Positions 1 to 49,818 of a stretch of DNA of 62,411 bases are shown piece after piece. Positions within the stretch are counted from its first letter, which is position 1, and the number at the start of each line of letters is the position of its first letter. The stretch is taken from the NCBI GenBank assembly GCA_964513505.1, contig CAZENL010000004.1, positions 1 through 62,411 on the forward strand, given 5' to 3'. The position numbers were made by a program, and so were the translations under genes. This DNA comes from an uncultured Anaerolineaceae bacterium (GTDB lineage: Bacteria; Chloroflexota; Limnocylindria; Limnocylindrales; CSP1-4). Under the pieces are notes generated by a model. That model was not told the origin of the DNA. It saw only the letters and a program-made list of their open reading frames with translations, and ran no database searches.

Positions 1-65
1 GCCGCTTAATTGCGGCGCGAAGTGTAAACGGCTTGGGACCGGCAATGTTCCGGGCGACGCCCAGC

Positions 66-1585: not shown

Positions 1586-1586
1586 G

Positions 1587-1796
1587 TCAGCCGATATCGA
1601 TATCGGCGCGAGAGAGCATGTAGATCAAAAGGAGCAAGCAGATGAGCAGGATCGCCAAGAAGGCGACCGCGACCCATCCGGCGGTCCACCACCAATTCAG
1701 TCCGAAAACATGATGGGCCAACCAGCCGACGAAGCCGAGGAGTCCGGCGATGAGGGCCGCGCTGGTGATTTGAAATCCGAGAGTTTGCCAGTCCAT
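1587..1796 (-). CDS. small two-TM membrane protein
   Basis: Start MDWQTLG; two hydrophobic stretches; fills the gap between neighbours. Confidence 0.55.
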   Translation of the reverse strand: MDWQTLGFQITSAALIAGLLGFVGWLAHHVFGLNWWWTAGWVAVAFLAILLICLLLLIYMLSRADIDIG

Positions 1797-1828
1797 GAGC
1801 CACGCCCCCTTGATGCCGAGGCTCAGCT

Positions 1829-2569
1829 TTACACCGCCGGCGGCCGATCGCCCAGCACATTCCACATGAGCCGGCGGCCGCGCCCGCGCGCCATGAGCTG
1901 CTCCCATGCTTTGCGATCGTAGTTTCCGCAGCTCGGGAACGGGGAGCTGGCCGGCGTCTCCTCCGCGAAATCATAGGGGCAGGGCACCAGCTCGACGTTT
2001 GGCGGGAAGGCCTGCTTCTGATTCCGGCTGGCCAGCCCGACAGTCACGCCAAAGACCCGGCTCTGGGGGAAGGCCCGGCCGAGGCAGCGCGCCAGCATCC
2101 CCGAGCCCGTCGCGCACCAAACCTCGTCCACCGGCCCAGCCTGAGCGGCCACCCGGGCCATGACCGCCTCGAAGGGGCTGGTGGCGCCGGGGATATCGAA
2201 GCCCAGCGGCAGGAAGAGCGCGCCAGCCTGGGCGGCATAAGACCGGGCCCGGTGCTGGACAACGCTCATGCGGCCGGCCGGGACTTGGAAGAGCGTCGCG
2301 CCATTGCGGAAGGCCGCCTTCTGGCGCCAGTGGAATTCCTTGCGCTTGGCATAAAACAGCGTGACGGCCACGCCCTTGCGGCGCCCATAGACCGAGAGCG
2401 CATAGGGCGCGCCGCCGCAAAATGGACCGCCGAAGACGATTTCCTTCGCGCCGGCGACGATGTGCGGGAGAAACCTGATCTTGGAGCCGCCGTCGAGCAA
2501 ATCCTCGCGGACAACCAGCACGCCGCCATGCTCCTCGATGATCGGAGCGGCTTCGTACCACTCAGGCAT
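1829..2569 (-). CDS. PLP-dependent fold-type II enzyme (ACC deaminase/D-Cys desulfhydrase-like)
   Basis: Start MPEWYE. VVREDLLDGGSKIR (Schiff-base Lys) and VWCATGSGML (phosphate loop). Confidence 0.7.
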   Translation of the reverse strand: MPEWYEAAPIIEEHGGVLVVREDLLDGGSKIRFLPHIVAGAKEIVFGGPFCGGAPYALSVYGRRKGVAVTLFYAKRKEFHWRQKAAFRNGATLFQVPAGRMSVVQHRARSYAAQAGALFLPLGFDIPGATSPFEAVMARVAAQAGPVDEVWCATGSGMLARCLGRAFPQSRVFGVTVGLASRNQKQAFPPNVELVPCPYDFAEETPASSPFPSCGNYDRKAWEQLMARGRGRRLMWNVLGDRPPAV

Positions 2570-2939
2570 TGCCGGCGGCTTCTGCCAGCGTGAGGAAGCT
2601 GCTCGGCCGAGCATTGTCGCGCTGCCGCTCCATCGCCAGCTTGCAACACTTTTCGAGCTGGACGAGGAGCTCCTCATGCTTGTCGATGCCGAGCTGCTCC
2701 TTCAGAGCGGCGTTCATCGCCTTGGTGCTGCGATCGATATCCTCCCGCGTCTCGCGGATGAGCTGGCGGCCGACGCCTGGCGGGAACAAGTGCTTGCACC
2801 CATCGCATTGCAGCGCCGCCGCCCAGCATCCTTCGGCCACATCGTATTCGGCGCCGAAGAGAACCTCGCCGCTGCCCTTGGTGATGACGAAATGGAGGAA
2901 CGCCTTGAGGTTGGCCTTCAGCGCGGCGGTGTCAGTCAT
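2562..2939 (-). CDS. hypothetical protein with CxxC
   Basis: Start MTDTAA, ATGA-coupled; contains CDGC. Confidence 0.6.
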   Translation of the reverse strand: MTDTAALKANLKAFLHFVITKGSGEVLFGAEYDVAEGCWAAALQCDGCKHLFPPGVGRQLIRETREDIDRSTKAMNAALKEQLGIDKHEELLVQLEKCCKLAMERQRDNARPSSFLTLAEAAGNA

Positions 2940-17372: not shown

Positions 17373-17528
17373 ATGCGACACCCGATCACCCGCCGCCCCC
17401 TGAATTGGCGGTGGCCAATGCGGCTCCCCTTCAAGAACCCCGACGAAATGTGGTGGACGCTGACGAGCTGGGCGGTCGCCGCCATTCTCATCGCCTTCGG
17501 CTTCATCATCATCCACTCGCCAGGCTGA
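17373..17528 (+). CDS. small single-TM protein
   Basis: GAGAGG RBS; C-terminal WAVAAILIAFGFIII. Confidence 0.45.
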   Translation: MRHPITRRPLNWRWPMRLPFKNPDEMWWTLTSWAVAAILIAFGFIIIHSPG

Positions 17529-17530
17529 GC

Positions 17531-17998
17531 GTGTCGCCCACGCTCCGCCAGCCGACGCCGGCCGCCGCCGCATATCGGTGGTATGCCGCCGCGCTCAGCG
17601 CGAAGCCGGGCGATGATGCGCGGGCCTTCGATGAAGACGAGCCGCAGCCCGGGTTCTATAAGCGCCGGTTCAATCGGGAAGGCGTCTTCGTTCCGGCGAG
17701 GATCTGGCTGATCCAATATGTCGCCGATGGGGAGCTGATCGCTCCTGAGCTGATCGCCTGCGAAATCGGCGGCGATCGCTTCGATCCTCGTCACGCGGAG
17801 GGCCCTTTCGGCCTGCCGCTATGGTGCGTGCTGGCGGAGAACCCCATCACGAAAGCAGAATATGACCACATGATGCGCGTCCGGGCATGGGCGAAGACAT
17901 TCCGCCCCGATCAGCCTGAAGCCGCGCCGATGAAATCCGTGGATTTGTTCACGGTTAAACCGCCCACATGGGGCAAACGCAGCAAGAGGAAGCCATGA
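17531..17998 (+). CDS. conserved alphaproteobacterial phage hypothetical
   Basis: DEPQPGFYKRRFNREGVFVPARIW; GTG start assumed. Confidence 0.65.
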   Translation: MSPTLRQPTPAAAAYRWYAAALSAKPGDDARAFDEDEPQPGFYKRRFNREGVFVPARIWLIQYVADGELIAPELIACEIGGDRFDPRHAEGPFGLPLWCVLAENPITKAEYDHMMRVRAWAKTFRPDQPEAAPMKSVDLFTVKPPTWGKRSKRKP

Positions 17999-19125
17999 GC
18001 GAAGCACACGAAATCCCCCCGACCGTCGATAGCGCCATCAAGAAGGCGGTGCTCGGCGACAATTCCAGCAATGTGCCGGAAGATTTCCGCATCACCGTCA
18101 CGCCGCCCGAGGACATTACGCCCTATCTCGGCCGGCAATATGCCGATATCACCACCCGCTTCGCTGAGCTCTCCGCCTCGGCCGAGGCGATGCCCGACAC
18201 CATCGAGAACGATATCGAATCCGGGAAGGCCGGCGACTTGGTGAAGGAAATCCGCCTCTGGGACAAGAAGGCGGATGGCGCACGCTCGATCGAGAAGGAG
18301 CCATTCCAGAAGGGCGGCGCGACGGTGGACTCCTTCTTTAAGAACATGACCGAGAAGCTGGAGAAGGCGAAGAAGCGCGTTCTCGAAGTGCAGACCACCT
18401 ATCTCAACAAGAAGAAGGACGAGGAGCGCCGCCGGCTTGAGGCCGAGGCCCTGAAGAAGCGCGAGGCTGAGGAAAAGGCGCGCGTCGAAGCCGCCCAGGC
18501 CGAGGAGCGCAAGCGTGTGGCAGAAGAAGCCCGCGTCGCCGCTGAGGCCGCCGCCACCGAGGCCCGCGAAAACAAGGACGAGCTTGAGCAAGGGCGCCTC
18601 GATGCCGAGACCGCGCTGGCCAACGCCAAGCTCAAGAAGGCCATCGCTCGGCGGGATCGTGACGAGGATGCCTTCAGTGCCGCCTCTGTTGAGGTCACCA
18701 ACGCCATCGCCAGTCTCGCCGACGCCAAGGAGCGTCTGCGGGGCGCGCGTGAGGCTCAGCGCGTGGCCCTGGCCGATGCGGAGAAGAAGGCCAAGGAGCT
18801 GCGCACAGCCACCACCGCCGCGAACAATGCCGGTGACACCGCTGAGCGCGAAGGCGCCGGCGCGGCCAAGATCGAGAAGAAGCTGGAGAAGGCCAGCGAC
18901 GGCGATCTTTCCCGCACTCGCGGCGAGCATGGCAGCGTCAACACGCTCGCAAGGCATTGGGAGGCGACGATCGTCGATATGCAGCTCGTTCACGAGAACG
19001 TCGCGCTCATCATCGGCCTGATCGATCCCGATGTGATCCAAGTCGCCGTCAATAAGCGCATGAGGGCCGGCAACCGCGATGTGCCCGGCGTCACCTACGA
19101 AGAAGTCTCAGACGCCCGTTCCTAA
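17995..19125 (+). CDS. Gp157/Gam-like coiled-coil protein of the recombination module
   Basis: Start MSEAHE (ATGA). N- and C-terminal parts resemble Bet-associated proteins; long Ala/Glu coiled coil. Confidence 0.5.
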   Translation: MSEAHEIPPTVDSAIKKAVLGDNSSNVPEDFRITVTPPEDITPYLGRQYADITTRFAELSASAEAMPDTIENDIESGKAGDLVKEIRLWDKKADGARSIEKEPFQKGGATVDSFFKNMTEKLEKAKKRVLEVQTTYLNKKKDEERRRLEAEALKKREAEEKARVEAAQAEERKRVAEEARVAAEAAATEARENKDELEQGRLDAETALANAKLKKAIARRDRDEDAFSAASVEVTNAIASLADAKERLRGAREAQRVALADAEKKAKELRTATTAANNAGDTAEREGAGAAKIEKKLEKASDGDLSRTRGEHGSVNTLARHWEATIVDMQLVHENVALIIGLIDPDVIQVAVNKRMRAGNRDVPGVTYEEVSDARS

Positions 19126-19153
19126 TCCACCAACCCCCGAAAGGATTTTCAGC

Positions 19154-20500
19154 ATGAATACCCAAACCGCAAAGCCGTCGCAGACCGCAGAGCAAGCCCA
19201 GCCCGCTCAGCCGCTGGCGGTCGCCGGCACCGGGAAAGCCGTCGCGCGCATCGCGCCGGCGCGCCTTCCCTATCATCCGGCGATCGAGGGCACCTTCGGC
19301 GTCGATCGCAGCCAATGGCGAGCGCTGACCGATAGTATCTTCCCGATGGCCAAGACCACGGAAGCGGTCATCTTGGCGCTCTCCTACTGCAAGGCCCGCC
19401 ACCTCGATATTATGAAGAAGCCGGTCCATATCGTGCCGATGTGGAACAGCGAGCTCAAGAAGGAGGTCGAGACTGTTTGGCCTGCCATCACCGAGCATCG
19501 CATCACGGCGCACCGCACCGGCCAATATGCCGGCACCGATGCGACGCTCTTCGGCGAGCAGAAGACGAAGCACTTCGAGGCCAAGGTCCAGTCGGGAAAG
19601 AACGCCGGCAAAATCTATAAGGCCGATGTGACGTTTCCAGAATGGGCTCAGGTAACGGTCTATCGCCTTGTCGCTGGCCAGCGCTGCGCCTTCCCGGGGC
19701 CGCGGGTTTACTTCGAGGAATTCTTCGGCATGACGGCCGGCCTGCCGGTGCCGAATTCCCGCTGGGCGCGCTCGCCCTCGCAAATGCTGGAGAAGTGCGC
19801 CGAGGCCGGCGCGCTCCGCAAAGCCTTCACCGAGGAAATCGGCGCCGATCCGATCGCCGAGGAAATGGAAGGCCGGATCATCGATCAAGTGCTCTCGCAA
19901 ATGAAGAAGGCGCGCCCCAACCAGCCGCTCAACACTTCGGCGCATTTCGTGCCGGAGAACGAAGTGGTCGACTCCAGCGCTGAGGCGGCGGCCGAGGATG
20001 GCGAAGCGGCTGAAGAAGGCCACGATCCCGAAACCGGCGAAGTGGTCGAGGAAGGCTCGGCCGCCACGGCGGAAGCCGCCAAGCCCGATCGCGGCGCCGA
20101 CTGGCTGGCGGCCCGGATCGCCTCGATCGCCGGCGTCACCGATCGCGCTCTGCTGGCCCAGAAGGACAAGGCGGTGCGCGAAGTGATCGCCAACGAAGAG
20201 CGGCCCGATCTTCTCCCGAAATGGGAAGAGGCGCTCAAGGCCGCGCTCGATGCGCTGCCGGCGGAGACGGTCAAGGCGGCCGAGGCTCCGAAGGGCGAGA
20301 CGAAGGCGCTCAGCGCGGCCGATCAGGAATACGAGGACTGGAAGGCCGATCAATACGCGCTGCTCAAGAACGCCAAGCTCACGCGGACGGTCGATGATCT
20401 TCAGGAGCTCACCGTCAAAGAGCTCCGCGAGGCTGATCGTCCTGCCTACGTCGAGGCCTGCAACGCCAAGGCGAAAGAGCTGCTGAGCGGCAAGAAGTAA
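19154..20500 (+). CDS. bet: Red-beta (Bet) single-strand annealing protein
   Basis: YCKARHLDIMKKPVHIVPMW, RITAHRTGQYAG, WARSPSQMLEKCAEAGALRKAF. Confidence 0.85.
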   Translation: MNTQTAKPSQTAEQAQPAQPLAVAGTGKAVARIAPARLPYHPAIEGTFGVDRSQWRALTDSIFPMAKTTEAVILALSYCKARHLDIMKKPVHIVPMWNSELKKEVETVWPAITEHRITAHRTGQYAGTDATLFGEQKTKHFEAKVQSGKNAGKIYKADVTFPEWAQVTVYRLVAGQRCAFPGPRVYFEEFFGMTAGLPVPNSRWARSPSQMLEKCAEAGALRKAFTEEIGADPIAEEMEGRIIDQVLSQMKKARPNQPLNTSAHFVPENEVVDSSAEAAAEDGEAAEEGHDPETGEVVEEGSAATAEAAKPDRGADWLAARIASIAGVTDRALLAQKDKAVREVIANEERPDLLPKWEEALKAALDALPAETVKAAEAPKGETKALSAADQEYEDWKADQYALLKNAKLTRTVDDLQELTVKELREADRPAYVEACNAKAKELLSGKK

Positions 20501-20533
20501 ACCCACCAACCAATCCTCAAGAGGAATTCCATC

Positions 20534-21994
20534 ATGCAATCAATTCAGAATGTCGCCCTCGACAAGCTCCGCTTCGGCCATGAATTCAAAGGCGGCTCGC
20601 TTAATGTCCGGCAATCCGGCCGCGATGATGTTGACGCCCTGATCGCTTCCATCAAGGCCGAGGGGCTGCTCCAGCCTCTCGCCTCATGGGAGCGTGAAGG
20701 CGTTTTCTATATCTTAGACGGCAACCGCCGCCTGGCCGCGCTGAAAAAGATCGGCAAGCCAGTGCCGGAGAATTGGCTGCATGTCATCGAGGCCGACAGT
20801 ATCGAAGACGCCCAGGCGAAGAGCTTGGCGGCCAACATCATGGCCGTGCCGCTCGATCCGGTTGACCGCTTCGAGGCCTTCGCCTCTCTCCAGCCGAAGT
20901 TCACCGCCGAGCAGATCGCGGCGCGATATGGCACCACGAAGAAGCTGGTCGAGCGCAGCCTCATCCTCGCAAAGCTCTCGCCGACGATCAGGACGGCGCT
21001 CCGCAAAAACGAGCTCGATTACGAGGCCGCCTGCGCCTTCACCATCGAGCCCGATCCGAAGCGCCAGGAGGCCATCTTCAAGAAGCTGAAGGCGCGCGGA
21101 AACTGGTGCCTGCGTCGCTATGATATCCGCGAGGCAATCACCGGCGATCAGGATGATATCGCCGGCATGTTGAAATTCGTCGGCGCCGCGGCCGCCAAGG
21201 AGGCGGGCGTGACGGAAGTGGACGATCTATTCGCCGAAAAGGGCGACGCGCCCAAAGTGGTGCAGAATGTCGGCGCGCTGGAGAAGCTCGTCCAGGCGAA
21301 GATCAGCAGCACGAAGAGCAAGCTGCTGGCCGAGGGCTGGGGCAGCGTGGTGATGGAAGACAGCCTCGAATATGGCTGGGAGCGTTGGGCCCGCTCGCCG
21401 GCAGCAAAGGGCGCCGATCGCAAGAAGCTCATGGTGGTGCTGGAGCTCAAAGGCGGAGTTCTCAAGCAGCATCTGGGCCTCCATAAATCGAAGCAGCGCG
21501 TCGCCGTCGAGCAGAAGGCCGAGAAGAAGAAGGCCAGCCCGAACGCGCTGAGCAATGCGCTCAAGGAGCGGCTGGAGTACGTTCTCATCAAGGCCACCCG
21601 CACGGCGATCTTGAACGAGAGCTGGAAAGACCCCCGGGCGGCCATCTTCACCGCGATCGTCGCTGCGGATATTGACCGCCATCGCTTCATCCAGCAGATG
21701 CCAACCTATTTGGGCTCGAAGCTGGCCAGCATCCGGGACTCAATATCGGCCGATGTGATGAAGGCGGCGCTGCTCAAGCACTTCGATCCGAAGGACTACT
21801 TCCCGCGCGCCCCCAAGGGCGTGGTGCTGAAGGCGATCGCGGAATCCCTTGTCCAGGCCCCGGCCGATCTGAAAACGAAAACCAAGGCCGTGATCTGGAA
21901 ATTCGCCATCGCCCATGTCGGCAAGACCGAATGGTTGCCGCCTGAGCTGCGCACCGCCCACTATGCCGCCAAGAAGGGCGCGAAGAAGCGCTGA
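20534..21994 (+). CDS. ParB/RepB/Spo0J-family protein
   Basis: LIASIKAEGLLQPL, YILDGNRRLAAL, ANIMAVPLDPVDRFEAF, followed by an HTH. Confidence 0.85.
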   Translation: MQSIQNVALDKLRFGHEFKGGSLNVRQSGRDDVDALIASIKAEGLLQPLASWEREGVFYILDGNRRLAALKKIGKPVPENWLHVIEADSIEDAQAKSLAANIMAVPLDPVDRFEAFASLQPKFTAEQIAARYGTTKKLVERSLILAKLSPTIRTALRKNELDYEAACAFTIEPDPKRQEAIFKKLKARGNWCLRRYDIREAITGDQDDIAGMLKFVGAAAAKEAGVTEVDDLFAEKGDAPKVVQNVGALEKLVQAKISSTKSKLLAEGWGSVVMEDSLEYGWERWARSPAAKGADRKKLMVVLELKGGVLKQHLGLHKSKQRVAVEQKAEKKKASPNALSNALKERLEYVLIKATRTAILNESWKDPRAAIFTAIVAADIDRHRFIQQMPTYLGSKLASIRDSISADVMKAALLKHFDPKDYFPRAPKGVVLKAIAESLVQAPADLKTKTKAVIWKFAIAHVGKTEWLPPELRTAHYAAKKGAKKR

Positions 21995-22035
21995 TTGATC
22001 CCTCCATCATTTCCACCAACCGAAAGGACTTCACC

Positions 22036-22404
22036 ATGAAACGCTTTTCCATCCTCGCCGCCTGCCTCCTGCTCTCCGGCTGCGTCGGCTCTCCCGCTCA
22101 GAACTACGTCCCGGCGATCGATCTTCAGGGCGTCGATATGAGCCGCTACCAAGCCGACTTGAAGGATTGTCAGGGCTACGGCGCGACCCATGATCCGGCC
22201 AGGGCGGCGGCGAACAGCGCCATCGCCGGCGCGATTGTCGGCGCTCTCCTCGGCGCCGCGATCGGGGGCGGCCGCATGGTCGCGACTGGCGCGGCGATCG
22301 GCGGCACGGAAGCCGGCGCCGCCGGCGGAGTGCGGGCGGCCGAGACAGCCCAGCTCGTAGTTCAACGCTGCATGGCCGGCCGCGGCTACCGCGTGTTGGA
22401 TTAG
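22036..22404 (+). CDS. glycine-zipper lipoprotein
   Basis: Lipobox LLSG-C; AIAGAIVGALLGAAIGG zipper; QRCMAGRGY. Confidence 0.8.
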   Translation: MKRFSILAACLLLSGCVGSPAQNYVPAIDLQGVDMSRYQADLKDCQGYGATHDPARAAANSAIAGAIVGALLGAAIGGGRMVATGAAIGGTEAGAAGGVRAAETAQLVVQRCMAGRGYRVLD

Positions 22405-22407
22405 GCC

Positions 22408-24261
22408 ATGAGCAAAACGGCGATCCCGGACGAGGCCCTCGACGATCGGCTGGGCTTCGTCGGCACCAGCGGCAGCGGCAAAACCTACGGCGCGAAGGGG
22501 CGCGTCGAGCGCCTCCTCAAGCTGGGCCATCGGGCGGTGATCGTCGATGCTCTCGATGTGTGGTGGGGGCTTCGCCTTTCGCCGGATGGCAAGAAGGCCG
22601 GCTTCGATGTGGCGGTGCTGGGCGGCAAGCACGGCGACATGCCGATCAACGAGCATTCGGGCGCCCTGATCGGCGAGGCGGTGGCCACCAGCTCGGAGAG
22701 CTGCATCGTCTCGCTCGGCGGGATGAAGACGCAGGCGGCCAGGCAGCGCTTCATGCTGGCCTTCCTCGACGCCGTTTATGAGCACACCGATCCCGATCGC
22801 GGCGATCCCTATCATTTCGTGGTGGATGAGGCCGATCTTTGGGCGCCGCAAAAGCCCATGGGGAATGAAGCGATGCTCTGCCACTTGATGGAGGAGATCG
22901 TGCGGCGCGGCCGCGTGAAGGGCTTCATCCCTTGGGTGATTACCCAGCGGCCGGCGGTCATTAACAAAAACGTGCTGAGCATGGTGGACGGGCTTATCGC
23001 CTTGAAGCTGACCAGCTCGCAGGATCGCGACGCGCTCTGGGCGTGGGTCGAGGGCCAGGGCGATCGGCAGGAGGGAAAGGCGATGATCGCCCAGCTCCCG
23101 GCGCTCCAGCGCGGCGAAGGCATCATCTGGATACCCAGTCGCCACATTCTGAAGACGGCGCAATTCCCGGAGAATTCGACCTTCGATAGCTCGCGCACCC
23201 CGAAGCGGGGCGAGAAGAAGATCGACGCCAAGCTCCAGCCGCTCAATATCGAGGCGCTGAAATCCCGGCTCGTCACCGTCGAGCAGGAGGCGAAGGCGAA
23301 CGATCCCAAGTCCCTCAAGATCAGGATCGCCGAGCTGGAGCGCGAACTGGCGAAGGCGTCCATCCCGAAGGGCGGCTTAAAGGAAATCGATCATGGCATG
23401 ATCTTTGCCGCCGCCCAGGAGGCGCGCGCGATCGGCCGGGAGGAAGGCTTCCTCGTCGGCCACCATGTCGGCGCCGGACTGGCTGGAGTGGTCGGCAAGT
23501 GGATGCGCGAGAGCATCAAGGGGATCGGCGATCAGCTCAACGGCCGGCTGGACGAAGGGATCGCGCTCGCCCAGGCGCAAGAGTTTACCGAGGAGCAGGC
23601 AGGCTTTGCCGGTGTCGGCGGCGAGGCGGTGCTCAAGAAGCTCAGGAAGGGCCTGATCGTCGAGAAGGGCAGCGAGCGGGCGAAGCTCTTGTCGGCCGCT
23701 CCAGCCGCGCCGGCTCCGCGCGCCGCTACCGACCGGATGCCGCTCCCGGTCCGGGCCGCCCCGCCGCCCGCCGCCATCGATCCCGAGCTCGGCCGGGCAA
23801 AGCAGGCGATCCTCGATGCTCTGGCATGGTGGGAAAGCATCGGCCGCCACGCGATCGATAGAGTGGTGCTGGCCTTCCTGATCGGCGTTTCCAACAAGAG
23901 CTCAGGGCATCAAAACAACCTCGGCGCCCTCCGCACCGCCGGCCTGATCGAATATCCCCCAGGCGGCGGCATGGCGGAGCTCACGCCGGCGGGCCGGGCC
24001 AAGGCCAACCCGCCCGAGGCGGTGCTGGATTCCGCCGCCCTCCAGCAGCGCATCCTCGGCAAGCTCAACCCGCCCATGCGCGCGATCGTCGAGCTGCTCC
24101 TCGATGGCCGCGAGCGATCGAAGGATGAGCTGGCCGAAGAGCTGGGCGTCTCGGCGAAATCCAGCGGCCACCAAAACAATCTCGGCTCACTTCGCACCAT
24201 GGGCTTCATCACCTATCCCAAAGCCGGATCGGTGGTGATCGGCTCTTCCATGTTTATCTGA
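22408..24261 (+). CDS. HerA/DUF87-like P-loop ATPase with tandem C-terminal wHTH domains
   Basis: GTSGSGKT, FVVDEAD, RGRVKG..VITQRPA; KSSGHQNNLG occurs twice at the C-terminus. Confidence 0.8.
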   Translation: MSKTAIPDEALDDRLGFVGTSGSGKTYGAKGRVERLLKLGHRAVIVDALDVWWGLRLSPDGKKAGFDVAVLGGKHGDMPINEHSGALIGEAVATSSESCIVSLGGMKTQAARQRFMLAFLDAVYEHTDPDRGDPYHFVVDEADLWAPQKPMGNEAMLCHLMEEIVRRGRVKGFIPWVITQRPAVINKNVLSMVDGLIALKLTSSQDRDALWAWVEGQGDRQEGKAMIAQLPALQRGEGIIWIPSRHILKTAQFPENSTFDSSRTPKRGEKKIDAKLQPLNIEALKSRLVTVEQEAKANDPKSLKIRIAELERELAKASIPKGGLKEIDHGMIFAAAQEARAIGREEGFLVGHHVGAGLAGVVGKWMRESIKGIGDQLNGRLDEGIALAQAQEFTEEQAGFAGVGGEAVLKKLRKGLIVEKGSERAKLLSAAPAAPAPRAATDRMPLPVRAAPPPAAIDPELGRAKQAILDALAWWESIGRHAIDRVVLAFLIGVSNKSSGHQNNLGALRTAGLIEYPPGGGMAELTPAGRAKANPPEAVLDSAALQQRILGKLNPPMRAIVELLLDGRERSKDELAEELGVSAKSSGHQNNLGSLRTMGFITYPKAGSVVIGSSMFI

Positions 24262-24271
24262 GGAGGAAAGC

Positions 24272-24640
24272 ATGACACCCAATCGACAAAGACAGGCGCA
24301 CGAATATCTTGAGCTCAAGCAGCGCGGCTTCTCTTTCGCCGAGGTCGCCGCGATGAAGGGCCTCACGCCGGCAGCGGTGACAGGCTGTGTCGCCGAGCTC
24401 AGGGCTGAGCTCAAGCGCATCCATGGCCCCCAGCATCTTGTCGCCCATAACGCGGCGCTTTCGGTGCGGGCCCGGTGGATTCTCCGCAATGTCGGGGTCG
24501 CCTCGCTCTTCGATCTTCCCAGCCTCCAGCCATCGCCGGAGGCCTATCTCATGCGGACGCCATGCTGCGGCGGCAAAACCGTCAAGGAGATAATGGCCGC
24601 CCGGGCTGCGGTGGTGGCAGGGATGAAGGCGGCGGAATGA
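24272..24640 (+). CDS. HTH plus RNA polymerase alpha-CTD-like protein
   Basis: N-terminal GFSFAEVAAMKGLTPAAV. LSVRARWILR..DL..LMRTPCCGGKTVKEI aligns to alphaCTD LTVRSANCLK..DL..LLKTPNLGKKSLTEI. Confidence 0.7.
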   Translation: MTPNRQRQAHEYLELKQRGFSFAEVAAMKGLTPAAVTGCVAELRAELKRIHGPQHLVAHNAALSVRARWILRNVGVASLFDLPSLQPSPEAYLMRTPCCGGKTVKEIMAARAAVVAGMKAAE

Positions 24641-24828
24641 AGCCGGTCAAGCACAGCGAGATTTGCGCGCGGTGCGGCAAAGCCCGGCAAGTGATCTGGC
24701 ATGGGCGCTATACTGCGTCGGAATTCTACCCGCCTGGCGCTTGCACCCAGACAGACCAATGCGAGCGGGAAATGCTGGCGGCCGCGAAGAAGATCGAAAA
24801 ATCAAGAGGAGAGAAGAATGCGAGTTGA
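24637..24828 (+). CDS. small Cys-rich protein
   Basis: Start MKPVKH (ATGA); CARC...C...C. Confidence 0.5.
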   Translation: MKPVKHSEICARCGKARQVIWHGRYTASEFYPPGACTQTDQCEREMLAAAKKIEKSRGEKNAS

Positions 24829-25570
24829 AACAGATGTGATGCTGGTGCTGGAGCGGTCGGGCACGCATGGGAACGAGCTGCACTTGCCGCCAGAGAAGCT
24901 CGATCGGCCGATGTATGAGCGCGTCGCCAAGGTGATCGAGGCCTGCGGCGGCAAATGGAACCGAAAAGCGAAAGCCCACCTGTTCGACGGGCCGGCGGTC
25001 GATGCGATCGATGCGGTGCTCTTGAACGGCGAAGTCGCGAAGCCGCAGGATTTTGGCTTCTTCGAGACGCCGCCCGAGTTGGTGGTGCGCGTGATGTACG
25101 AGGCGCAAATCAGCGAGGGCATGGAAGTGCTGGAGCCCTCGGCCGGCACCGGCCGCCTAGCAGATGCGGCGCGCGATGTTGGCGCTAATGTCCTGTGCGT
25201 CGAGCTCCAGCAAAAGAATTGCGAGGCGCTCCGGGCCAAGAAGCATCACTTCATCCCCACCACGGATTTCCTCACCTTCGAGCGGCCGATCCTGCCGGCG
25301 CGCTTCGATCGCGTGGTGATGAACCCGCCCTTCGCGCGCTCGGCCGATGTGAAGCACATCTTGCACGCCTATTCGATGCTCAAGCCAGGCGGCCGTCTGG
25401 TGTCGATCGCCGGCGCCGGCGTCCTCTTCCGGCAGGACCGGCTATATCAGGAGCTCCGCCAGCTCGCGGCCGCGCACGGCTCGATGGAGCCGCTCCCGGA
25501 GGGCAGCTTCAAGAGCGCCGGCACGATGGTGAATACGGCGCTGGTGATTCTCGATGCCGATCCGGCCTGA
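24818..25570 (+). CDS. N6-adenine-type SAM-dependent methyltransferase
   Basis: FGFFETP, VLEPSAGTG, VVMNPPF. Confidence 0.85.
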   Translation: MRVETDVMLVLERSGTHGNELHLPPEKLDRPMYERVAKVIEACGGKWNRKAKAHLFDGPAVDAIDAVLLNGEVAKPQDFGFFETPPELVVRVMYEAQISEGMEVLEPSAGTGRLADAARDVGANVLCVELQQKNCEALRAKKHHFIPTTDFLTFERPILPARFDRVVMNPPFARSADVKHILHAYSMLKPGGRLVSIAGAGVLFRQDRLYQELRQLAAAHGSMEPLPEGSFKSAGTMVNTALVILDADPA

Positions 25571-25985
25571 GAACGCAGCGCGCTACCCAAAGGACTGGCC
25601 GGAAATCAGCCGGCGGGTGCGCGATGCCGCCGGCAACAAGTGCGAATGGTGCGGCGTGCCGAACGGCGAGCTCGGCGGCCGCCTTCCTTCCGGGACATGG
25701 TGCCGCGCTGCCGGCTGGGATCATCCTGCCGATCGGCCGGTCGAGGGCGGAAGCCACCCATGCCATGCCCCCGGCTCGGACAAGTGCGTGATGCTGAGGA
25801 TTGTCCGCATTGTGTTGACCGTCGCCCATCTGGATCACCAGCCCGAGAATTGCGATCGTGCGAACCTGAAGGCGCTCTGTCAGCGCTGCCATAATAGCTA
25901 CGACATGCCGCACCGCCGCGCCGGCATCGAAGAACGGGCTCGGGTCGGCCGGGCGCTCGGCGATCTATTCGAGGAGAAGCCTTGA
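25554..25985 (+). CDS. HNH endonuclease-like protein
   Basis: RYPKDW, CEWCG, LTVAHLDHQPENC..NLKALCQRCHNSYD. Confidence 0.85.
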   Translation: MPIRPENAARYPKDWPEISRRVRDAAGNKCEWCGVPNGELGGRLPSGTWCRAAGWDHPADRPVEGGSHPCHAPGSDKCVMLRIVRIVLTVAHLDHQPENCDRANLKALCQRCHNSYDMPHRRAGIEERARVGRALGDLFEEKP

Positions 25986-26221
25986 TGCAACGGGCCGATC
26001 TCTTCCCAACGGCGCCGCGCTTCTACAAAAAGCGGCGCGGCGTTCTGGGCCATGTGATTGACGCGGGCAATGGCTGCGGCGGCGCCGAGCCCGGCCGGAA
26101 CATTTGGGCTCGGTTGCGGTGCAGACGCGGGCACGAATGGGAAGTATTTTCAGGCCATACCGTCACCGAACTCAAGCGCGGCATTCCGTGCCCGACATGC
26201 AATGAGGAGAAGAGCGAATGA
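25985..26221 (+). CDS. zinc-ribbon protein
   Basis: CRRGHEW...CPTC. Confidence 0.6.
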   Translation: MQRADLFPTAPRFYKKRRGVLGHVIDAGNGCGGAEPGRNIWARLRCRRGHEWEVFSGHTVTELKRGIPCPTCNEEKSE

Positions 26222-26619
26222 TGAAGTCGCTGGCAGAGCACACCGCGGCCGTCGCCGCCTTCCTCGCCGAGCTGGCCGAGACGATGGGGGTGGATCTGGA
26301 GCCCGAAGGCGAGAAGATCAGCGTCGCCGAAATGTGCCAGCTCATCCTCGGCCGCGCCCGCGCCGATCGGGAGGCCGCCGTGGTGATATGCCCGCTGCGC
26401 CTCCAGCTCGTCGATCCGGGGAGCCTGAGCTGCCGCCATCAAGCCGGCACCACGCCGGCGTCTAATTTCGGAATGGTCGAATTCCTATTCGCTGGCCGCG
26501 ACGCGCTCGATCGGGCGGATGCCCTGCACGATGCGCTGCTGGCCCTCATCGCTTTCGTCGATCCCGCCAGGCCCGGGCCCGATGATCACCGCAACCGGCC
26601 GATCGAGAGGAAGACATGA
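26218..26619 (+). CDS. hypothetical protein
   Basis: ATGA-coupled. Confidence 0.55.
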   Translation: MMKSLAEHTAAVAAFLAELAETMGVDLEPEGEKISVAEMCQLILGRARADREAAVVICPLRLQLVDPGSLSCRHQAGTTPASNFGMVEFLFAGRDALDRADALHDALLALIAFVDPARPGPDDHRNRPIERKT

Positions 26620-27125
26620 CGAAGAAAGCCACCGCACGGCTCAGCGCCGCCGCATCCGCCAAGCTGCTAGAAGAAGTCGAAGAATGGCGCCGCGAAGCAA
26701 AGGCCAGCGATCAACAAGTCACCCGCCGGACTGAAGAGCTGCTCCAAGCCCAGCAGCGCATCCGGGATATGGGGAAGGAGCTCGACGAGGCGCGCGGCAA
26801 GATCACCGAGCGCGAGAAGGATTTGATGGGCGATCTGCAATCGAAGGAGCGGGCGGTCAACAAGCTCAAATCGAAGCTGTTCTCCTGCCTTCAGGAGCTG
26901 TGGGCGACGAAAGGCTATCTCGCCCGGGTGGCCGAGGACGATGCGATCCGGGAGCTGGGGCCTTCAGCGCCGGCGCCCGTCTCGGAGGCCCGGCTTCCAC
27001 CCCCGGCGCCAGTCAGCCGGCGCATGGGCCCGGGCTTCCTTGCCCCGGAGGAGCCCGCCCCGGTCGATCCCCATGCTTTCGGCCGGGATCAGCGCCCTCC
27101 GCCCACGCCTTGGTTCAATCTCTGA
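26616..27125 (+). CDS. coiled-coil hypothetical protein
   Basis: ATGA-coupled; heptad-rich with a Pro-rich tail. Confidence 0.6.
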   Translation: MTKKATARLSAAASAKLLEEVEEWRREAKASDQQVTRRTEELLQAQQRIRDMGKELDEARGKITEREKDLMGDLQSKERAVNKLKSKLFSCLQELWATKGYLARVAEDDAIRELGPSAPAPVSEARLPPPAPVSRRMGPGFLAPEEPAPVDPHAFGRDQRPPPTPWFNL

Positions 27126-27233
27126 GGCCAGCGCCTCACAGCCACGGCGATCCCCCTGCTCCGGCAACGGTGCAGGGGGCCCGGCCCAGCCGGCCGCTGT
27201 AGCCCCTCCCTAGAGCCAGGTCCCTGATCGACC

Positions 27234-27258
27234 GGAACCGGCCCGGCCGGGGGGCGTT
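27234..27258 (+). promoter_or_regulatory. EcfG (sigmaT/RpoE2) general-stress promoter
   Basis: GGAAC-N16-CGTT, 38 nt before the DUF3309 ATG. Confidence 0.7.
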
Positions 27259-27296
27259 CCTTCTGATCGATTTCCCGCGAAAAGAAGGATTTCCCC

Positions 27297-27452
27297 ATGC
27301 TCGGCCCGATCCTGCTCGTCTTGCTTGTTCTCGCCCTGATCGGCGCTTGGCCTTCCTGGCCGCATTCCGCCGGCTGGGGATACGGCCCCTCCGGCGGCCT
27401 GGGCCTTCTCCTGATCGTTCTGCTGGTGCTGCTATTCGCCGGCCGCCTCTGA
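27297..27452 (+). CDS. DUF3309-family small membrane protein (below ORF-track cutoff)
   Basis: Hand translation MLGPILLVLLVLALIGAWPSWPHSAGWGYGPSGGLGLLLIVLLVLLFAGRL; AAGGA RBS. Confidence 0.85.
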   Translation: MLGPILLVLLVLALIGAWPSWPHSAGWGYGPSGGLGLLLIVLLVLLFAGRL

Positions 27453-27555
27453 GGCTTGTCCCGATCGATTGACCGTGCGACCAATCGATTCGCGGGTGCC
27501 GAGACGGGCGGCCTCGGCCCGCCCCTGATCCAGCCGCCAGCAGCAAGGGCATCCC

Positions 27556-27762
27556 ATGAGCGGCCAGCAGACCGGCAAAGTGAAGTTTTTCAACGAGGCG
27601 AAGGCCTTCGGTTTCATCGCCCCCGATGGCGGCGGGAAGGATATCTTCGTGCACAAGACCGGTCTCGGCCGGGGCGTCGTTCTCACCGAAGGCCAGAAGG
27701 TGAGCTTCCGGACCGAGAGCGATCAGAAGGGCGTCAAGGCGGTTGACGTCGAGCTGGGCTGA
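27556..27762 (+). CDS. cspA: cold-shock domain protein (CspA family)
   Basis: TGKVKFFNEAKAFGFI (RNP1), DIFVH (RNP2), GQKVSF. Confidence 0.95.
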   Translation: MSGQQTGKVKFFNEAKAFGFIAPDGGGKDIFVHKTGLGRGVVLTEGQKVSFRTESDQKGVKAVDVELG

Positions 27763-27835
27763 AAAGAAAAAGGCGGCCGGGGATTAAGCCGGCCGCCAGT
27801 TAAGGGAGGAAACGCCCAGGAAGGGCGGCGGCTTC
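27763..27835 (-). ncRNA. alpha-r8/suhB (MmgR-like) small RNA
   Basis: Minus strand: hairpin CGCCC-UUCCU-GGGCG, then UUUCCUCCCU, UAACU, and terminator GGCGGCCGG-N8-CCGGCCGCC-UUUUU. 5' end is approximate. Confidence 0.75.
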
Positions 27836-27890
27836 GCAATCAAGGATCGCAATACCGCGCGGGAGTTCTCTACCACATCGCCGGAAAGAA

Positions 27891-27919
27891 AAAAGGCCCC
27901 GAGCTGATCGGGGCCTTTT
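27891..27919. terminator. bidirectional intrinsic terminator ending the late operon
   Basis: AAAAGGCCCC-N9-GGGGCCTTTT. Confidence 0.8.
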
Positions 27920-27941
27920 GAGTTTCGAGCATGGAGGAGTG

Positions 27942-28391
27942 CTAGGGACACGACTGAAGTGGATACTGAAGCCCGGCCGACACCCTCATATAGCTGACCT
28001 GAAGGTCGCTGATTTGCGCCGATATACTTTCAGCCAAAGGGGTATTGTTGGCGCGCCGAGCGGAACACTCCGTCGCGTGCATCCCGATAATCTGCCCGGC
28101 GATGATCGTCGCCTTTAGATCGTTGGTGTCAGCGCGCATCGCCGTCTTCATTTCAGCAATGCTCGCCTCGGCAGTTTTGAAGCGGGCGTTTACATCGGCC
28201 GCCTGGGCGAAGCCCATAAAACCGAAGGTGTTGAGGAAGCCCCACATCGCCGCCGCCTGAAGCATCGCCAGGCCATAGCCGCAGACGATCGAGTAGGCCA
28301 CTGTGGTGCGCCAGCGATACTCCGGCGTCGGGGCGCCATCCTCCGGCGGCTTCAGAGCCGCGGCGACGTCTTTGATGAAATCGGTCGGCAT
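27942..28391 (-). CDS. membrane protein of the lysis region
   Basis: N-terminal TM followed by a helical domain. Confidence 0.6.
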   Translation of the reverse strand: MPTDFIKDVAAALKPPEDGAPTPEYRWRTTVAYSIVCGYGLAMLQAAAMWGFLNTFGFMGFAQAADVNARFKTAEASIAEMKTAMRADTNDLKATIIAGQIIGMHATECSARRANNTPLAESISAQISDLQVSYMRVSAGLQYPLQSCP

Positions 28392-28403
28392 GGCGATCGA
28401 TCC

Positions 28404-28739
28404 TTATTTGATGAAACTGTGGAAGAGGGAAATGGCTGCGAAGATCATCGCGGCGGCCCCAACGATCCAGCCCCAGCCATCGCTAATCCCGCGGCCGCGC
28501 CCTTCTCTCTGATCGCTGTTGGAAGTCACCCGCGAAAGGCGGTCGTTTATGGCGGCGGTGATCCCGCTGGAGGCATTCTCAGCTTTGAGATTGGCTTCCT
28601 TCGCGGCGGCGAGAGCGGCGTCAACGGCTTTGCCGTTGTCTTCAAATCGCTGCGAATGGCGCTTGTCTACCGCCTCGATCTTTTCTTCGAGGCGGAGGAC
28701 GATCTGGTCGATGAGTTCGCGCGAATGGCGCTTCGACAA
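28404..28739 (-). CDS. coiled-coil protein with C-terminal TM
   Basis: TTG start with GGAG; ends WGWIVGAAAMIFAAISLF. Confidence 0.6.
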   Translation of the reverse strand: MSKRHSRELIDQIVLRLEEKIEAVDKRHSQRFEDNGKAVDAALAAAKEANLKAENASSGITAAINDRLSRVTSNSDQREGRGRGISDGWGWIVGAAAMIFAAISLFHSFIK

Positions 28740-28762
28740 GACCGTCTCTCCATGGGTAGCAT

Positions 28763-29089
28763 TTAAGAGGTTGCGGCGGCCGCCTGCTTGGCCTTGATAT
28801 CGGCCATGAGAGTTTCGTAGGCCGATTCCTCGCCCACCGCATAGGCGTCGAGCTCGGTCTGCGTCGGCGGCGTGCTGCTCTGGAACTGAGCGTAGAGCTT
28901 CTCGGCCTCCGGGATGCCGGCCTCGATGCCCTGGGCGATCTTCACGCCGATGGCGATCGCGGCGCCGGAGCCGGGGAAGGCGACGCCAAGCACCGTCTCA
29001 AGGACGGGCAGCGCGTCGGAAAGAACGGAGACGGCTTGGTCGAGCTCGGAGGGGGCCGCGGCGGCGGCCTGGGTGGCGGGATCGCTCAA
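28763..29089 (-). CDS. hypothetical protein of the lysis region
   Basis: ATGA/TGA-coupled to the lipoprotein. Confidence 0.6.
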   Translation of the reverse strand: MSDPATQAAAAAPSELDQAVSVLSDALPVLETVLGVAFPGSGAAIAIGVKIAQGIEAGIPEAEKLYAQFQSSTPPTQTELDAYAVGEESAYETLMADIKAKQAAAATS

Positions 29090-29472
29090 TGGGAAACTCC
29101 TTGCAAGGTGGCGTAGCTGTTGTAAGCGGCGAGCGCCTCGTTGAAGGCGGCCAGCGCGATCGCGGTCAGCGCGCTATTGCCGGAGCTGTTCGCCTGCTCG
29201 GCCTTGACGAGGGCGTTGTGGACGGCCGGCACCAGCACGCTCAGCTCGGAGAGCACCGCCGGGCTGGGGTTGCCGTTCTTGACATAGAGATCGAGCGCCT
29301 TCTCGGCGAGCGTTGTGGCCTGGGCGGCTTCGGCGACCGTCTTCGCCTGCGTCGGCGATGCGCCGCTGGTGGCGACCACCACATCGGAGACGGCGCTGCT
29401 GAACCATGTGCAGCCGGAAAGAGAGAACGCGGCGGCGAGGGCCAGGCCGGCGACGAGGGTCTTGAGGCGCAT
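29086..29472 (-). CDS. lipoprotein, possible spanin component
   Basis: Lipobox SLSG-C; lies after holin and endolysin. Confidence 0.65.
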   Translation of the reverse strand: MRLKTLVAGLALAAAFSLSGCTWFSSAVSDVVVATSGASPTQAKTVAEAAQATTLAEKALDLYVKNGNPSPAVLSELSVLVPAVHNALVKAEQANSSGNSALTAIALAAFNEALAAYNSYATLQGVSH

Positions 29473-29481
29473 GGGGACTCC

Positions 29482-29733
29482 TTAGAGCTTGGCCGCTGCC
29501 GAGGGCGTGACGGTCGTGGTGTAGAAGGTCTTGGCGATGATGGTCGACAGGCCGCCGATGATGGTGATGGCGATCGTCGCGTCATGTGCATAAGGCGCCG
29601 GCAGGAAAGGGGCGACCTGATTGAGCAGCTCGTTTGCCGAGACGAGGAAGGCGGTCGCGCCGGCGAGCCAGTTGACCTTCGAGGCCCAGGCTGACTTGAC
29701 GGTGACGGTGACTGGCTGGCCGCTTGAGCTCAT
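29482..29733 (-). CDS. putative holin
   Basis: 83 aa, two TMs, KSAWASKVNW motif, next to the endolysin. Confidence 0.6.
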   Translation of the reverse strand: MSSSGQPVTVTVKSAWASKVNWLAGATAFLVSANELLNQVAPFLPAPYAHDATIAITIIGGLSTIIAKTFYTTTVTPSAAAKL

Positions 29734-48822: not shown

Positions 48823-49818
48823 TTAGTTGTTGGTGATGTTGTAGAAGAAGAAGCCCAGATCGGAGCCGACGAGCTTCATGTCGAAGCTCATTTCGGTTTC
48901 GATGCGGACCGTGCCCAGGCCGCGCAGCGGCACCGGGATATTGCTCACGCGGACGCCCATGTTGTTGAGGCCGGTGAAGCCCGCCCATGGGAAGACATAC
49001 CCCGCGCTCGGCACCATCAAGCCAGGCGCCGGCGCCGCATAAGCGAGCAGGGCATGGTTGCCGGTGACGAAGGAGAAGCTGTCAGCGGCGCCTTCCGCGG
49101 CGGAATTGTAAACCGCCTTGGAGACAACGACCTTCTCCACATCGAAGGCCTCGGCGAGGAGCTGCGGGGTGATTTTGCCCGCATAGGCCGGCGAGGTGTA
49201 CTTGATGCGATCGATCACCAGCGGGTGCTTCTTCAAGGCCTTATAGACCTTGTAGCCGAGCACCAGCACATTCGGCTCCATGCCGGTATTTTCCAGCACC
49301 ACAGTCTGGGCGTCGGAAATATCGGTGAAGGGATCGCCGTCCGCATCATTGTTCCAATAGGTGCGGGTGGTGGTGCCGTTGCCATTGGCCGCGCCGGCGA
49401 CTTCGTTCGCCCACAGGCCGGTGGTGAAGTACTTCGTGACGAAGATGCGGTCCTTCTTGATGAGCATCTTCTGCATGAGCATCCGGGTCGCCCCGATTTC
49501 CGGCTCGACGGCCGGATCGGCATTGCGGCGCATCTGCTCGCCGATATCCTGATGGAGCGCATAAACCGCCGCCAGATAGGAATCGGTGTCGAGGTTGTAG
49601 CCAGTGCCAGCCGACTCGGTGGCATCCGCGCGCTGCTGGGCTTCATCGCGGAAGAAGTCGCCCTTGCGATACCGGAAGTATTTGTCGGACTGGTGCTGGA
49701 CGGGCACCGGCGGGAAAACCACATCGGCGATGTAGGAGTCCGCCTTCTGAAGATAGGCGGTGGCGATCATCGATAGCGCTGCGTCAATATGGACAGCGCC
49801 CTGTGTTGGTTGCGGCAT
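48823..49818 (-). CDS. major capsid protein
   Basis: VHIDAALSMIATAY, IADVVFPPVPVQHQSDKY, PNVLVLGYKVYKALKKHPLVIDRIKY. Confidence 0.9.
   Translation of the reverse strand: MPQPTQGAVHIDAALSMIATAYLQKADSYIADVVFPPVPVQHQSDKYFRYRKGDFFRDEAQQRADATESAGTGYNLDTDSYLAAVYALHQDIGEQMRRNADPAVEPEIGATRMLMQKMLIKKDRIFVTKYFTTGLWANEVAGAANGNGTTTRTYWNNDADGDPFTDISDAQTVVLENTGMEPNVLVLGYKVYKALKKHPLVIDRIKYTSPAYAGKITPQLLAEAFDVEKVVVSKAVYNSAAEGAADSFSFVTGNHALLAYAAPAPGLMVPSAGYVFPWAGFTGLNNMGVRVSNIPVPLRGLGTVRIETEMSFDMKLVGSDLGFFFYNITNN

Follow-up and report, generated by a model that had tools for sequence, protein, structure and literature searches.

Small RNAs (sRNAs) of the alphaR8 family (Rfam RF00519, suhB/MmgR), represented by MmgR of Sinorhizobium meliloti, SuhB of Sphingopyxis granuli, and SisA-D of Caulobacter crescentus, have only recently been recognized as global regulators (SisA and its sponge CrfA in Caulobacter; SuhB-dependent stress resistance in Sphingopyxis). 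MmgR limits the accumulation of polyhydroxybutyrate, and, to our knowledge, both this family and the general stress sigma factor EcfG are restricted to alphaproteobacteria. Here we describe a phage genome, the 62,411-nucleotide (nt) contig CAZENL010000004.1 of GenBank assembly GCA_964513505.1 (hereafter, the window, meaning this stretch of DNA at its full length), which carries a full-length alphaR8-family sRNA gene that faces the genes for a DUF3309 protein and a cold-shock-domain protein (csp), preceded by an EcfG-type promoter-like site. The characterized alphaR8 sRNAs share a weak 5' hairpin, an invariant unpaired 10-mer, and a Rho-independent terminator, and SisA uses the 10-mer, together with Hfq, to repress the mRNAs of transporters and TonB-dependent receptors (PMC12559287). 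A suhB deletion mutant is as stress sensitive as one that lacks ecfG1 and ecfG2, and both mutants have less CspA (bioRxiv 10.64898/2025.12.09.693200). The phage thus unites three players whose networks converge in a host, namely, an EcfG-type promoter-like site, CspA, and SuhB.

The families of all these parts are already known, as are phage-borne csp genes and phage-encoded sRNAs. The EcfG (ECF15)-type promoters of alphaproteobacteria consist of the -35 box GGAAC and the -10 box CGTT separated by 16 or 17 nt; in the EcfG regulon of S. granuli, the AAC triplet hardly ever varies, flexibility is seen in the -10 box, GAAAC serves as a -35 box in the direct regulon, and the direct targets include small membrane proteins (PMC7083833). 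DUF3309 is a widespread family of unknown function (3,991 matches, beta- and gammaproteobacteria included) that is rarely mentioned in the literature searched and does not appear in the EcfG-regulon supplements. Single-domain genes of the CspA family are carried as cargo by phages and prophages, and csp was found in 43 phage records (e.g., those of the Escherichia phages Tritos, 2H10, and PHB10 and of Streptomyces jumbo phages). DicF is one of the regulatory RNAs encoded by phages or prophages. The anti-sRNAs AsxR and AgvB from prophages of enterohemorrhagic Escherichia coli are likewise small RNA genes of phages that plausibly act on host Hfq networks (cited in PMC12559287). The literature searched contained no report of an EcfG-dependent phage promoter, nor one that linked MmgR, SuhB, or alphaR8 with phages. 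Judged from sequence, what appears to be new here is a phage-borne member, recurrent across unrelated viral contigs, of an sRNA family that is core throughout the host class, together with a candidate EcfG-type promoter in a phage and the convergent arrangement with csp.

Overview of the cassette

The cassette sits at the meeting point of a plus-strand early operon (stop codon at 27125) and a minus-strand late operon (stop codon at 27942); its parts are listed in Table 1. The initial annotation, made from the letters of the sequence, had proposed an exact GGAAC-N16-CGTT motif, a DUF3309 gene, a cspA-type gene, and a convergent sRNA, forming one unit flanked by two convergent phage operons and pointing to alphaproteobacteria. 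Each of these elements was recovered, and the link to alphaproteobacteria follows from the class specificity of the alphaR8 family and EcfG. The sRNA had been seen as such, but its homology to MmgR, SuhB, and SisA, the most informative fact about the locus, had gone unrecognized.

With moderate confidence, we interpret the locus as a three-part accessory module (a "moron") in which the host stress sigma factor would read DUF3309 and probably csp, and an sRNA mimicking those of the host would act on host mRNAs. Traits of morons are present in that the cassette is located between phage operons, has promoter- and terminator-like signals at its flanks, and varies part by part in its presence in two related phages represented by the contigs L044 and L059.

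Table 1. Features of the cassette and its surroundings (window coordinates)
Feature	Position	Strand	Description
GC-rich hairpin CCCCCUGC...GCAGGGGG	27153-27180	+	After the last early gene (stop 27125), no U tract
EcfG (ECF15)-type promoter-like site	27234-27258	+	-35 GGAAC 27234-27238, 16-nt spacer, -10 CGTT 27255-27258
DUF3309 gene	27297-27452	+	51-amino-acid (aa) small hydrophobic protein, conserved loop WPxWPHSxGWGYGPSGGLG
csp leader/intergenic region	27453-27555	+	103 nt, without terminator, GC hairpin
csp	27556-27762	+	68-aa cold-shock-domain protein, divergent lineage found in phage-like contexts
alphaR8-family sRNA gene	27757-27833	-	Rfam RF00519 (suhB/MmgR)
sRNA U tract	27762-27771	-	3' end abuts/overlaps csp stop codon
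sRNA terminator stem	27772-27797	-	9 GC pairs, then UUUUUCUUUU
sRNA seed UUUCCUCCCU	27803-27812	-	Exact invariant 10-mer, unpaired in minimum free energy (MFE) and centroid folds
sRNA 5' hairpin	27814-27826	-	5 bp
Block directly upstream of sRNA	27834-27860	-	27 nt, 100% identical in L059, differs little in non-phage alphaR8 loci from the source metagenomes
Bidirectional intrinsic-terminator-like hairpin	27885-27928	both	Stem 27891-27919, A/T runs on both sides, z -4.5
Major capsid protein	48823-49818	-	
Large terminase (TerL)	55906-57510	-	

The alphaR8-family sRNA

The sRNA gene matches RF00519 over the full length of the model (positions 1 to 77 of 77) with 58.7 bits (gathering score, 41) and an E value of 1.6e-9 for the whole window, in which it is the single Rfam match at the curated threshold. 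Its fold (z -3.9) reproduces the family architecture, in which a 5' hairpin is followed by the unpaired 10-mer and then the terminator. In addition to these likenesses to MmgR, SuhB, and SisA-D, there are differences: the window copy is phage-borne and has csp and the late genes as its neighbors instead of the N-formylglutamate amidohydrolase (FGase) gene that adjoins the ancestral copy. However, the sisB-D paralogues also lack the FGase linkage, which therefore does not define all members of the family (PMC12559287). Upstream of the gene, only the 27 nt of the block at 27834-27860 are shared with chromosomal loci, and there is no PhaR/AniA box; this block presumably represents the sRNA core promoter or a 5' extension of the transcript. 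Non-phage metagenome contigs share 27798/27808-27860 with 1 or 2 mismatches and diverge further upstream.

Whereas AsxR, AgvB, and DicF have phage-specific sequences, the window sRNA belongs recognizably to a core family found throughout the host class and would act as a mimic rather than a novel-sequence sponge. Such copies are not confined to the window, as the core motif GCCCTTCNTGGGCGTTTCCTCCC was found in at least 21 contigs of the IMG/VR collection, all with the hairpin, 10-mer, and terminator architecture. When nine of these loci and L059 were retested against Rfam, eight of the nine and L059 passed the threshold, and L015 had no match above it. Several copies are embedded in clear phage modules, with positions between TerL and portal genes (L004), beside TerL and portal (L016), near a TerL homologue (L013), beside a tail fiber gene (L001), and beside a CI-like repressor gene (L019). 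On two unrelated contigs (L004:2825-3020, plus strand, and L013:2097-2319, minus strand), a tRNA gene is located 45 to 60 nt upstream of the sRNA on the same strand, a tandem that suggests a processed cotranscript.

A 55-aa open reading frame (ORF) that overlaps the sRNA (27784-27951, minus strand) was treated as spurious, as its codon-position GC content is flat (0.64/0.48/0.64). At the 3' end of the late operon (27880-27955, minus strand), CUCCUCC follows the stop codon by 12 nt, ahead of the terminator, and a weak second suhB-like match (18.1 bits, E 0.64) covers this region; it probably consists of the terminator plus a chance anti-Shine-Dalgarno-like word.

The DUF3309 gene and the EcfG-type promoter-like site

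The product of the 27297-27452 ORF matches PF11752 (DUF3309) over profile positions 1 to 50 of 50 (E 5.5e-20, 71.7 bits versus a cutoff of 22.3) and contains all 16 invariant columns of an alignment of 28 DUF3309 sequences. Upstream of it, both boxes and the spacing agree exactly with the EcfG consensus, 38 nt before the DUF3309 ATG, which would place the transcription start at approximately 27264-27267. The likeness to described EcfG promoters thus comprises the exact boxes, the spacing, a sensible distance to the gene, and a gene for a small membrane protein downstream; the difference is that this putative promoter lies in a phage genome. It is the position of the motif, not its frequency, that carries the weight: from 0.63 expected matches over 124,822 strand positions, a given gene would have a sense-strand match in the 100 nt preceding it with a probability of about 5e-4. 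A second exact match (27-51, minus strand) points off the start of the window and is not closely followed by a minus-strand gene, also when the genome is taken as circular; it probably arose by chance.

A scan of genome contigs yielded at least 10 taxonomically labeled DUF3309 loci. Exact GGAAC-N16-CGTT precedes DUF3309 in Reyranella (L034, at -50) and in Pseudolabrys (L041, at -91), and GGAAC-N16-TGTT is found upstream of the Rhizomicrobium gene (L036); no motif was seen at the labeled loci of Terriglobia, chlamydiae, and gammaproteobacteria. For bacterial DUF3309 loci overall, the tally is three exact motifs and one near match. A metagenome scan gave 80 DUF3309 loci without taxonomy, and a strict regular expression recovered 41 ORFs; in approximately 79 kb of the loci so recovered, both strands together had 2 sense and 0 antisense matches. 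This 41-ORF sample is too diluted by nonalphaproteobacteria for a good measure of the association between the motif and DUF3309.

The EcfG-type promoter most likely belongs to DUF3309 and would have arrived with it, because the motif also precedes DUF3309 in Reyranella, in Pseudolabrys, and on the metagenome contig L124 and is absent together with DUF3309 from L059. DUF3309 itself seems to be a recurrent phage cargo: it was found in 13 other viral contigs of IMG/VR (L061-L073), one of which (L071) encodes a TerL that is 43% identical to that of the window, and none of the 13 has the motif or csp. On L155 (1762-2287), DUF3309 directly follows a gene for a collagen-like protein with Gly-X-Y repeats. 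A tblastn search with DUF3309 against plasmids produced no match, probably for the reason that the query is short and of low complexity.

The csp gene and its leader

The csp product matches PF00313 (CSD) with an E value of 2.4e-18 and 66.2 bits versus a cutoff of 27; its RNP1 and RNP2 motifs, read from the translation, are KAFGFI (5 of 6 positions versus KGFGFI) and IFVHK (3 of 5 versus VFVHF). Its nearest homologues are those on L044 (82% identity in global alignment, 89% in local BLASTP) and L059 (82 to 84%), and bacterial csp genes are at most 68% identical. The csp genes of other phages and prophages are only 43 to 54% identical to that of the window, none of the listed matches comes from an alphaproteobacterial phage, and the window gene further differs from them by its conserved 103-nt leader, its DUF3309 partner, and the convergent sRNA that it faces.

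Pairwise identity of the leader among the three phages is 78 to 84% (84% for the window versus each relative). No Rfam family, the cspA thermosensor included, matched the leader even at E values up to 1, and a search of IMG/VR with a csp-leader motif gave a single match within a large ORF with no csp nearby, apparently by chance. The leader contains an inverted repeat, ATCGATTG (27464-27471) -N10- CAATCGAT (27482-27489), intact in L059 and broken in L044, which could be either a protein operator or an RNA hairpin. As no plus-strand terminator was found in the 103-nt gap, read-through from DUF3309 into csp is permitted; the initial annotation had gone further in stating that the promoter probably drives csp, and L059, which keeps csp without the motif, indicates that csp does not need it.

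Hairpins flanking the genes

A hairpin shared by csp and the sRNA had been proposed as a common end. The stem at 27772-27797 is indeed physically shared, but its T-run is on the minus strand only, so that it is a canonical terminator for the sRNA and has no U tract on the csp strand. A- and T-runs flank the proposed bidirectional terminator (27891-27919) on either side; the terminator scan lists it on the minus strand only, and its plus-strand tail, TTTTGAGTTT, was read from the sequence. This hairpin ends the late operon and, probably, the csp transcript; L059 and L044 have equivalent hairpins with the structure kept and a different sequence. The hairpin at 27153-27180 is present in both the MFE and centroid folds and is not significant in comparison with shuffled sequences (z -1.1); it is possibly a weak end of the early transcript.

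Related phages

The 28-kb contig L044 encodes a capsid protein that is 92% identical to that of the window and has, at the same junction, DUF3309 (75% identity in global alignment, 76% in BLASTP) and csp, followed by convergent late genes and a gene for a 1,042-aa tail protein. Upstream of its DUF3309 gene is GAAAC-N17-CGTT, which retains the AAC triplet and CGTT with a different spacer. Homology between the window and L044 starts at the -35 box, with 59% identity from there onward versus 46%, the level of alignment noise, for the 60 nt upstream. The L044 csp gene has a plus-strand terminator of its own ahead of an sRNA-like element.

On the 2-kb contigs L059 and L060, csp (82% identity in global alignment, 84% in BLASTP) has the same leader. 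The L059 sRNA scores 53.7 bits and shares with the window an identical block of 58 of 58 nt that comprises the seed, the 5' hairpin, and the 27 nt upstream; its terminator stem differs in sequence and still pairs. L059 and L060 have neither a DUF3309 ORF nor an EcfG-like motif; homology sets in again roughly 10 nt ahead of the DUF3309 stop codon. All three phages thus have csp and its leader, two have DUF3309 with its promoter-like site, and two have the canonical sRNA.

At the nucleotide level, the cassette is 79 to 82% identical, versus 66 to 69% for the flanking phage genes. Both coding genes are under purifying selection, with ratios of nonsynonymous to synonymous divergence (dN/dS) of 0.15 to 0.24 at dS of 0.57 to 0.87 (0.24 for DUF3309 of the window versus L044; 0.15 to 0.21 for csp among the three phages, at dS of 0.57 to 0.87). 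In view of this silent divergence, the leader and the 58-nt sRNA block are either constrained or were recently exchanged.

The description of the cassette as self-contained was too strong, as its parts vary independently in the three phages and csp adjoins DUF3309 in none of 98 bacterial DUF3309 loci. The latter count argues that the DUF3309-csp pairing arose in phages, and from the two observations together we conclude that the parts were joined within the lineage of the phage and did not come from a host as a single block.

Proposed mechanism and competing explanations

We propose that the DUF3309 gene was acquired together with GGAAC-N16-CGTT, the promoter type usual for its family in alphaproteobacteria, or retained it, and that stress on the infected cell would lead to transcription of the gene by host RNA polymerase with EcfG. 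The csp gene would be on the same transcript, and its product is likely an RNA chaperone. If expressed, the sRNA may bind Hfq and repress host mRNAs via its unpaired anti-Shine-Dalgarno 10-mer, with the targets of its cellular homologues (transporters, TonB-dependent receptors, and carbon-storage genes) as a model. TonB-dependent receptors and transporters are common phage receptors, and carbon-storage genes are also among the alphaR8 targets; these target types point to roles in superinfection exclusion or metabolic takeover, where a benefit of the module to the phage might lie. Phage copies of alphaR8 sRNAs would show that viruses borrow a core host sRNA and not only proteins or novel anti-sRNAs. 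A phage promoter read by EcfG, if real, would be the first case in the literature searched in which phage gene expression is tied to the alphaproteobacterial general stress response, and it would give DUF3309 a defined regulatory context.

Several observations weigh against this proposal. The window contains 2 matches to GGAAC-N16-CGTT versus 0.63 expected, and 2 or more were seen in 13 of 100 shuffled sequences, so that the count is not significant by itself. The Geminicoccaceae locus (L043) has no motif upstream of DUF3309, L124 (exact motif at -74) is the sole carrier among the 41 unlabeled DUF3309 loci, L059 retains csp and its leader without an EcfG-like motif, and the -35 box of L044, GAAAC, is imperfect and overlaps a stop codon. 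In S. granuli, loss of ecfG1 and ecfG2 lowers cspA and cspA2 16- to 20-fold, but these csp genes lie outside the direct EcfG regulon, and their dependence on EcfG is indirect (PMC7083833). With regard to the sRNA, no sigma-70 consensus was found upstream of it in the window, and the region in which a chromosomal copy would have its -35 box is missing from the phage copies. RNAduplex comparison of the seed with 80 phage translation start regions gave a mean of -8.6 versus a background of -8.35 kcal/mol, i.e., no enrichment; any targets would therefore be host mRNAs. RNA-seq runs contain at most 4% of the sampled phage words.

L044 (1821-1960, minus strand) has a diverged alphaR8-like element with 19.9 bits, the seed UUUCCCCAGA, and CCUCCC in the terminator loop, which also speaks against the proposal; it is either a decaying or a retargeted copy. 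Preceding this element is TGCAGCGCA, which fits the S. meliloti PhaR/AniA core YGCRNYGCR.

The strongest competing explanation, which we consider unlikely without dismissing it, is that the motif is a relic or a chance match and that DUF3309 and csp are read through from the early operon or transcribed from another promoter, independently of EcfG. There is no canonical terminator between the early operon and the cassette, and the csp gene and leader kept by L059 without the motif, the motif frequency in the window, and the imperfect L044 box all fit this explanation. Nevertheless, the motif is well placed and correctly oriented ahead of the ATG, homology with L044 begins at the -35 box, and the motif co-occurs with DUF3309 both in phages and in alphaproteobacterial genomes, all of which speaks against this explanation.

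Less probable still is that the sRNA has no promoter of its own and is a late, 3'-end-derived product, processed from late transcripts that pass the 27891-27919 hairpin, perhaps with help from a NusG-like protein, and stop at the sRNA terminator. The sRNA is located directly downstream of the late operon in the same orientation, it is not preceded by a sigma-70-like promoter, and homology with non-phage alphaR8 loci extends only as far as 27860, the expected place of a -35 box. Upstream of the sRNA in the window, there is also no sigma-54 match (by eye) and no PhaR box (YGCRNYGCR; PMC12542648), and neither a sigma-70-like promoter nor a PhaR box was found in L059. The NusG-like gene at 57944-58528 and the tRNA-sRNA tandems elsewhere, which suggest cotranscription and processing, would be compatible with such an origin. 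It is countered by the strong terminator that separates the late genes from the sRNA and by the 27 nt upstream, perfectly kept in L059 and matching chromosomal loci as expected for a core promoter.

A convergent antisense switch, in our estimate improbable, is compatible with the proposed module. Here, the csp transcript would pass the U-less hairpin and end at 27919-27928, giving it a 3' untranslated region (UTR) fully complementary to the sRNA; GGGAGGAAACGCCCAGGAAGGGC in this 3' UTR would pair with the conserved core of host alphaR8 sRNAs and make it a stress-induced, CrfA-like sponge. This model draws on the missing U tract of the plus-strand hairpin, on the next plus-strand terminator-like site being at 27891-27928, on the same layout in L059, and on the finding that CrfA sponges SisA-D through the same 10-mer (PMC12559287). 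The csp 3' region does carry the exact complement of the CrfA-targeted 10-mer, but its source is the cis-antisense overlap, whereas CrfA has a dedicated G/A-rich loop. Furthermore, the model is a purely structural one, GC-rich hairpins can terminate without good U tracts, and the L044 csp terminates before the sRNA-like element, so the overlap is not conserved.

An extended version, about equally doubtful, holds that alphaproteobacterial phages repeatedly carry working alphaR8 copies and that the one in the window, facing an EcfG unit, could serve as a mimic in unstressed cells, repressing transporters and receptors and redirecting carbon, while under stress the convergent transcript would neutralize phage and host alphaR8 RNAs alike.

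Host DNA misjoined to a phage contig, or a prophage edge with a bacterial cassette, could be invoked for three parts that are all of host type and for assembly-graph contig breaks at 27813-27842 (which occur because the sRNA core is common to other genomes), but such an origin is very improbable for a cassette that lies mid-genome between phage operons, is identical in independent assemblies, and has homologues at the same junction in two diverged phages; an assembly chimera was rejected on the basis of those identical independent contigs and the homologous junctions of L044 and L059.

The phage genome and other genes

The window (64% GC) apparently represents a new siphophage without an integrase, no integrase having been found among the approximately 35 window proteins scanned. 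In addition to the terminase and capsid genes (Table 1), the minus strand encodes a portal protein, a 1,041-aa tail protein, and a DnaB-like helicase, and the plus strand (17405-27125) carries genes for a RecT-like annealing protein and for one resembling ParB. No deposited phage has a capsid protein more than 42.5% identical to that of the window, with the best matches in the Pseudomonas phages KPP23/RSP, the Roseobacter RDJL phages, and Rhizobium phages; uncultured relatives of this protein are numerous and are found on contigs of 60 to 69 kb. The window sequence was detected in rhizosphere metagenomes only, and the host is probably a rhizosphere alphaproteobacterium. Six further contigs from other samples carry a 100% identical cassette in the same phage context, and the exact DUF3309 and Csp proteins are confined to contigs of the same phage from other samples. 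A blastn search with the cassette against 50,697 phage records gave no match, and the tail-protein relatives in IMG/VR are only 30 to 33% identical and come without csp, DUF3309, and the sRNA.

Just upstream of the terminase and the late operon, the minus strand encodes a 194-aa protein with a NusG N-terminal domain (57944-58528; Pfam E 2.3e-15), a possible antitermination factor for the 30-kb late transcript. The final five late genes (27942-29733, minus strand) encode small proteins without a family match; the product of 29086-29472 has a lipoprotein-type signal, MRLKTLVAGLALAAAFSLSGC, and other proteins of this group are hydrophobic, so they may form a lysis cassette adjoining the accessory module. 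Near the start of the window (431-2677, minus strand) are genes for proteins similar to Asp/Arg beta-hydroxylases (E 4.8e-10) and to pyridoxal phosphate-dependent enzymes (E 2.4e-8, slightly below the Pfam cutoff), which are possible auxiliary metabolic genes. One low-depth contig from run X1 has 91 nt at 26690-26782 exchanged for 91 other letters, inside the gene for a 169-aa protein upstream of the cassette; this replacement is a population variant of that gene.

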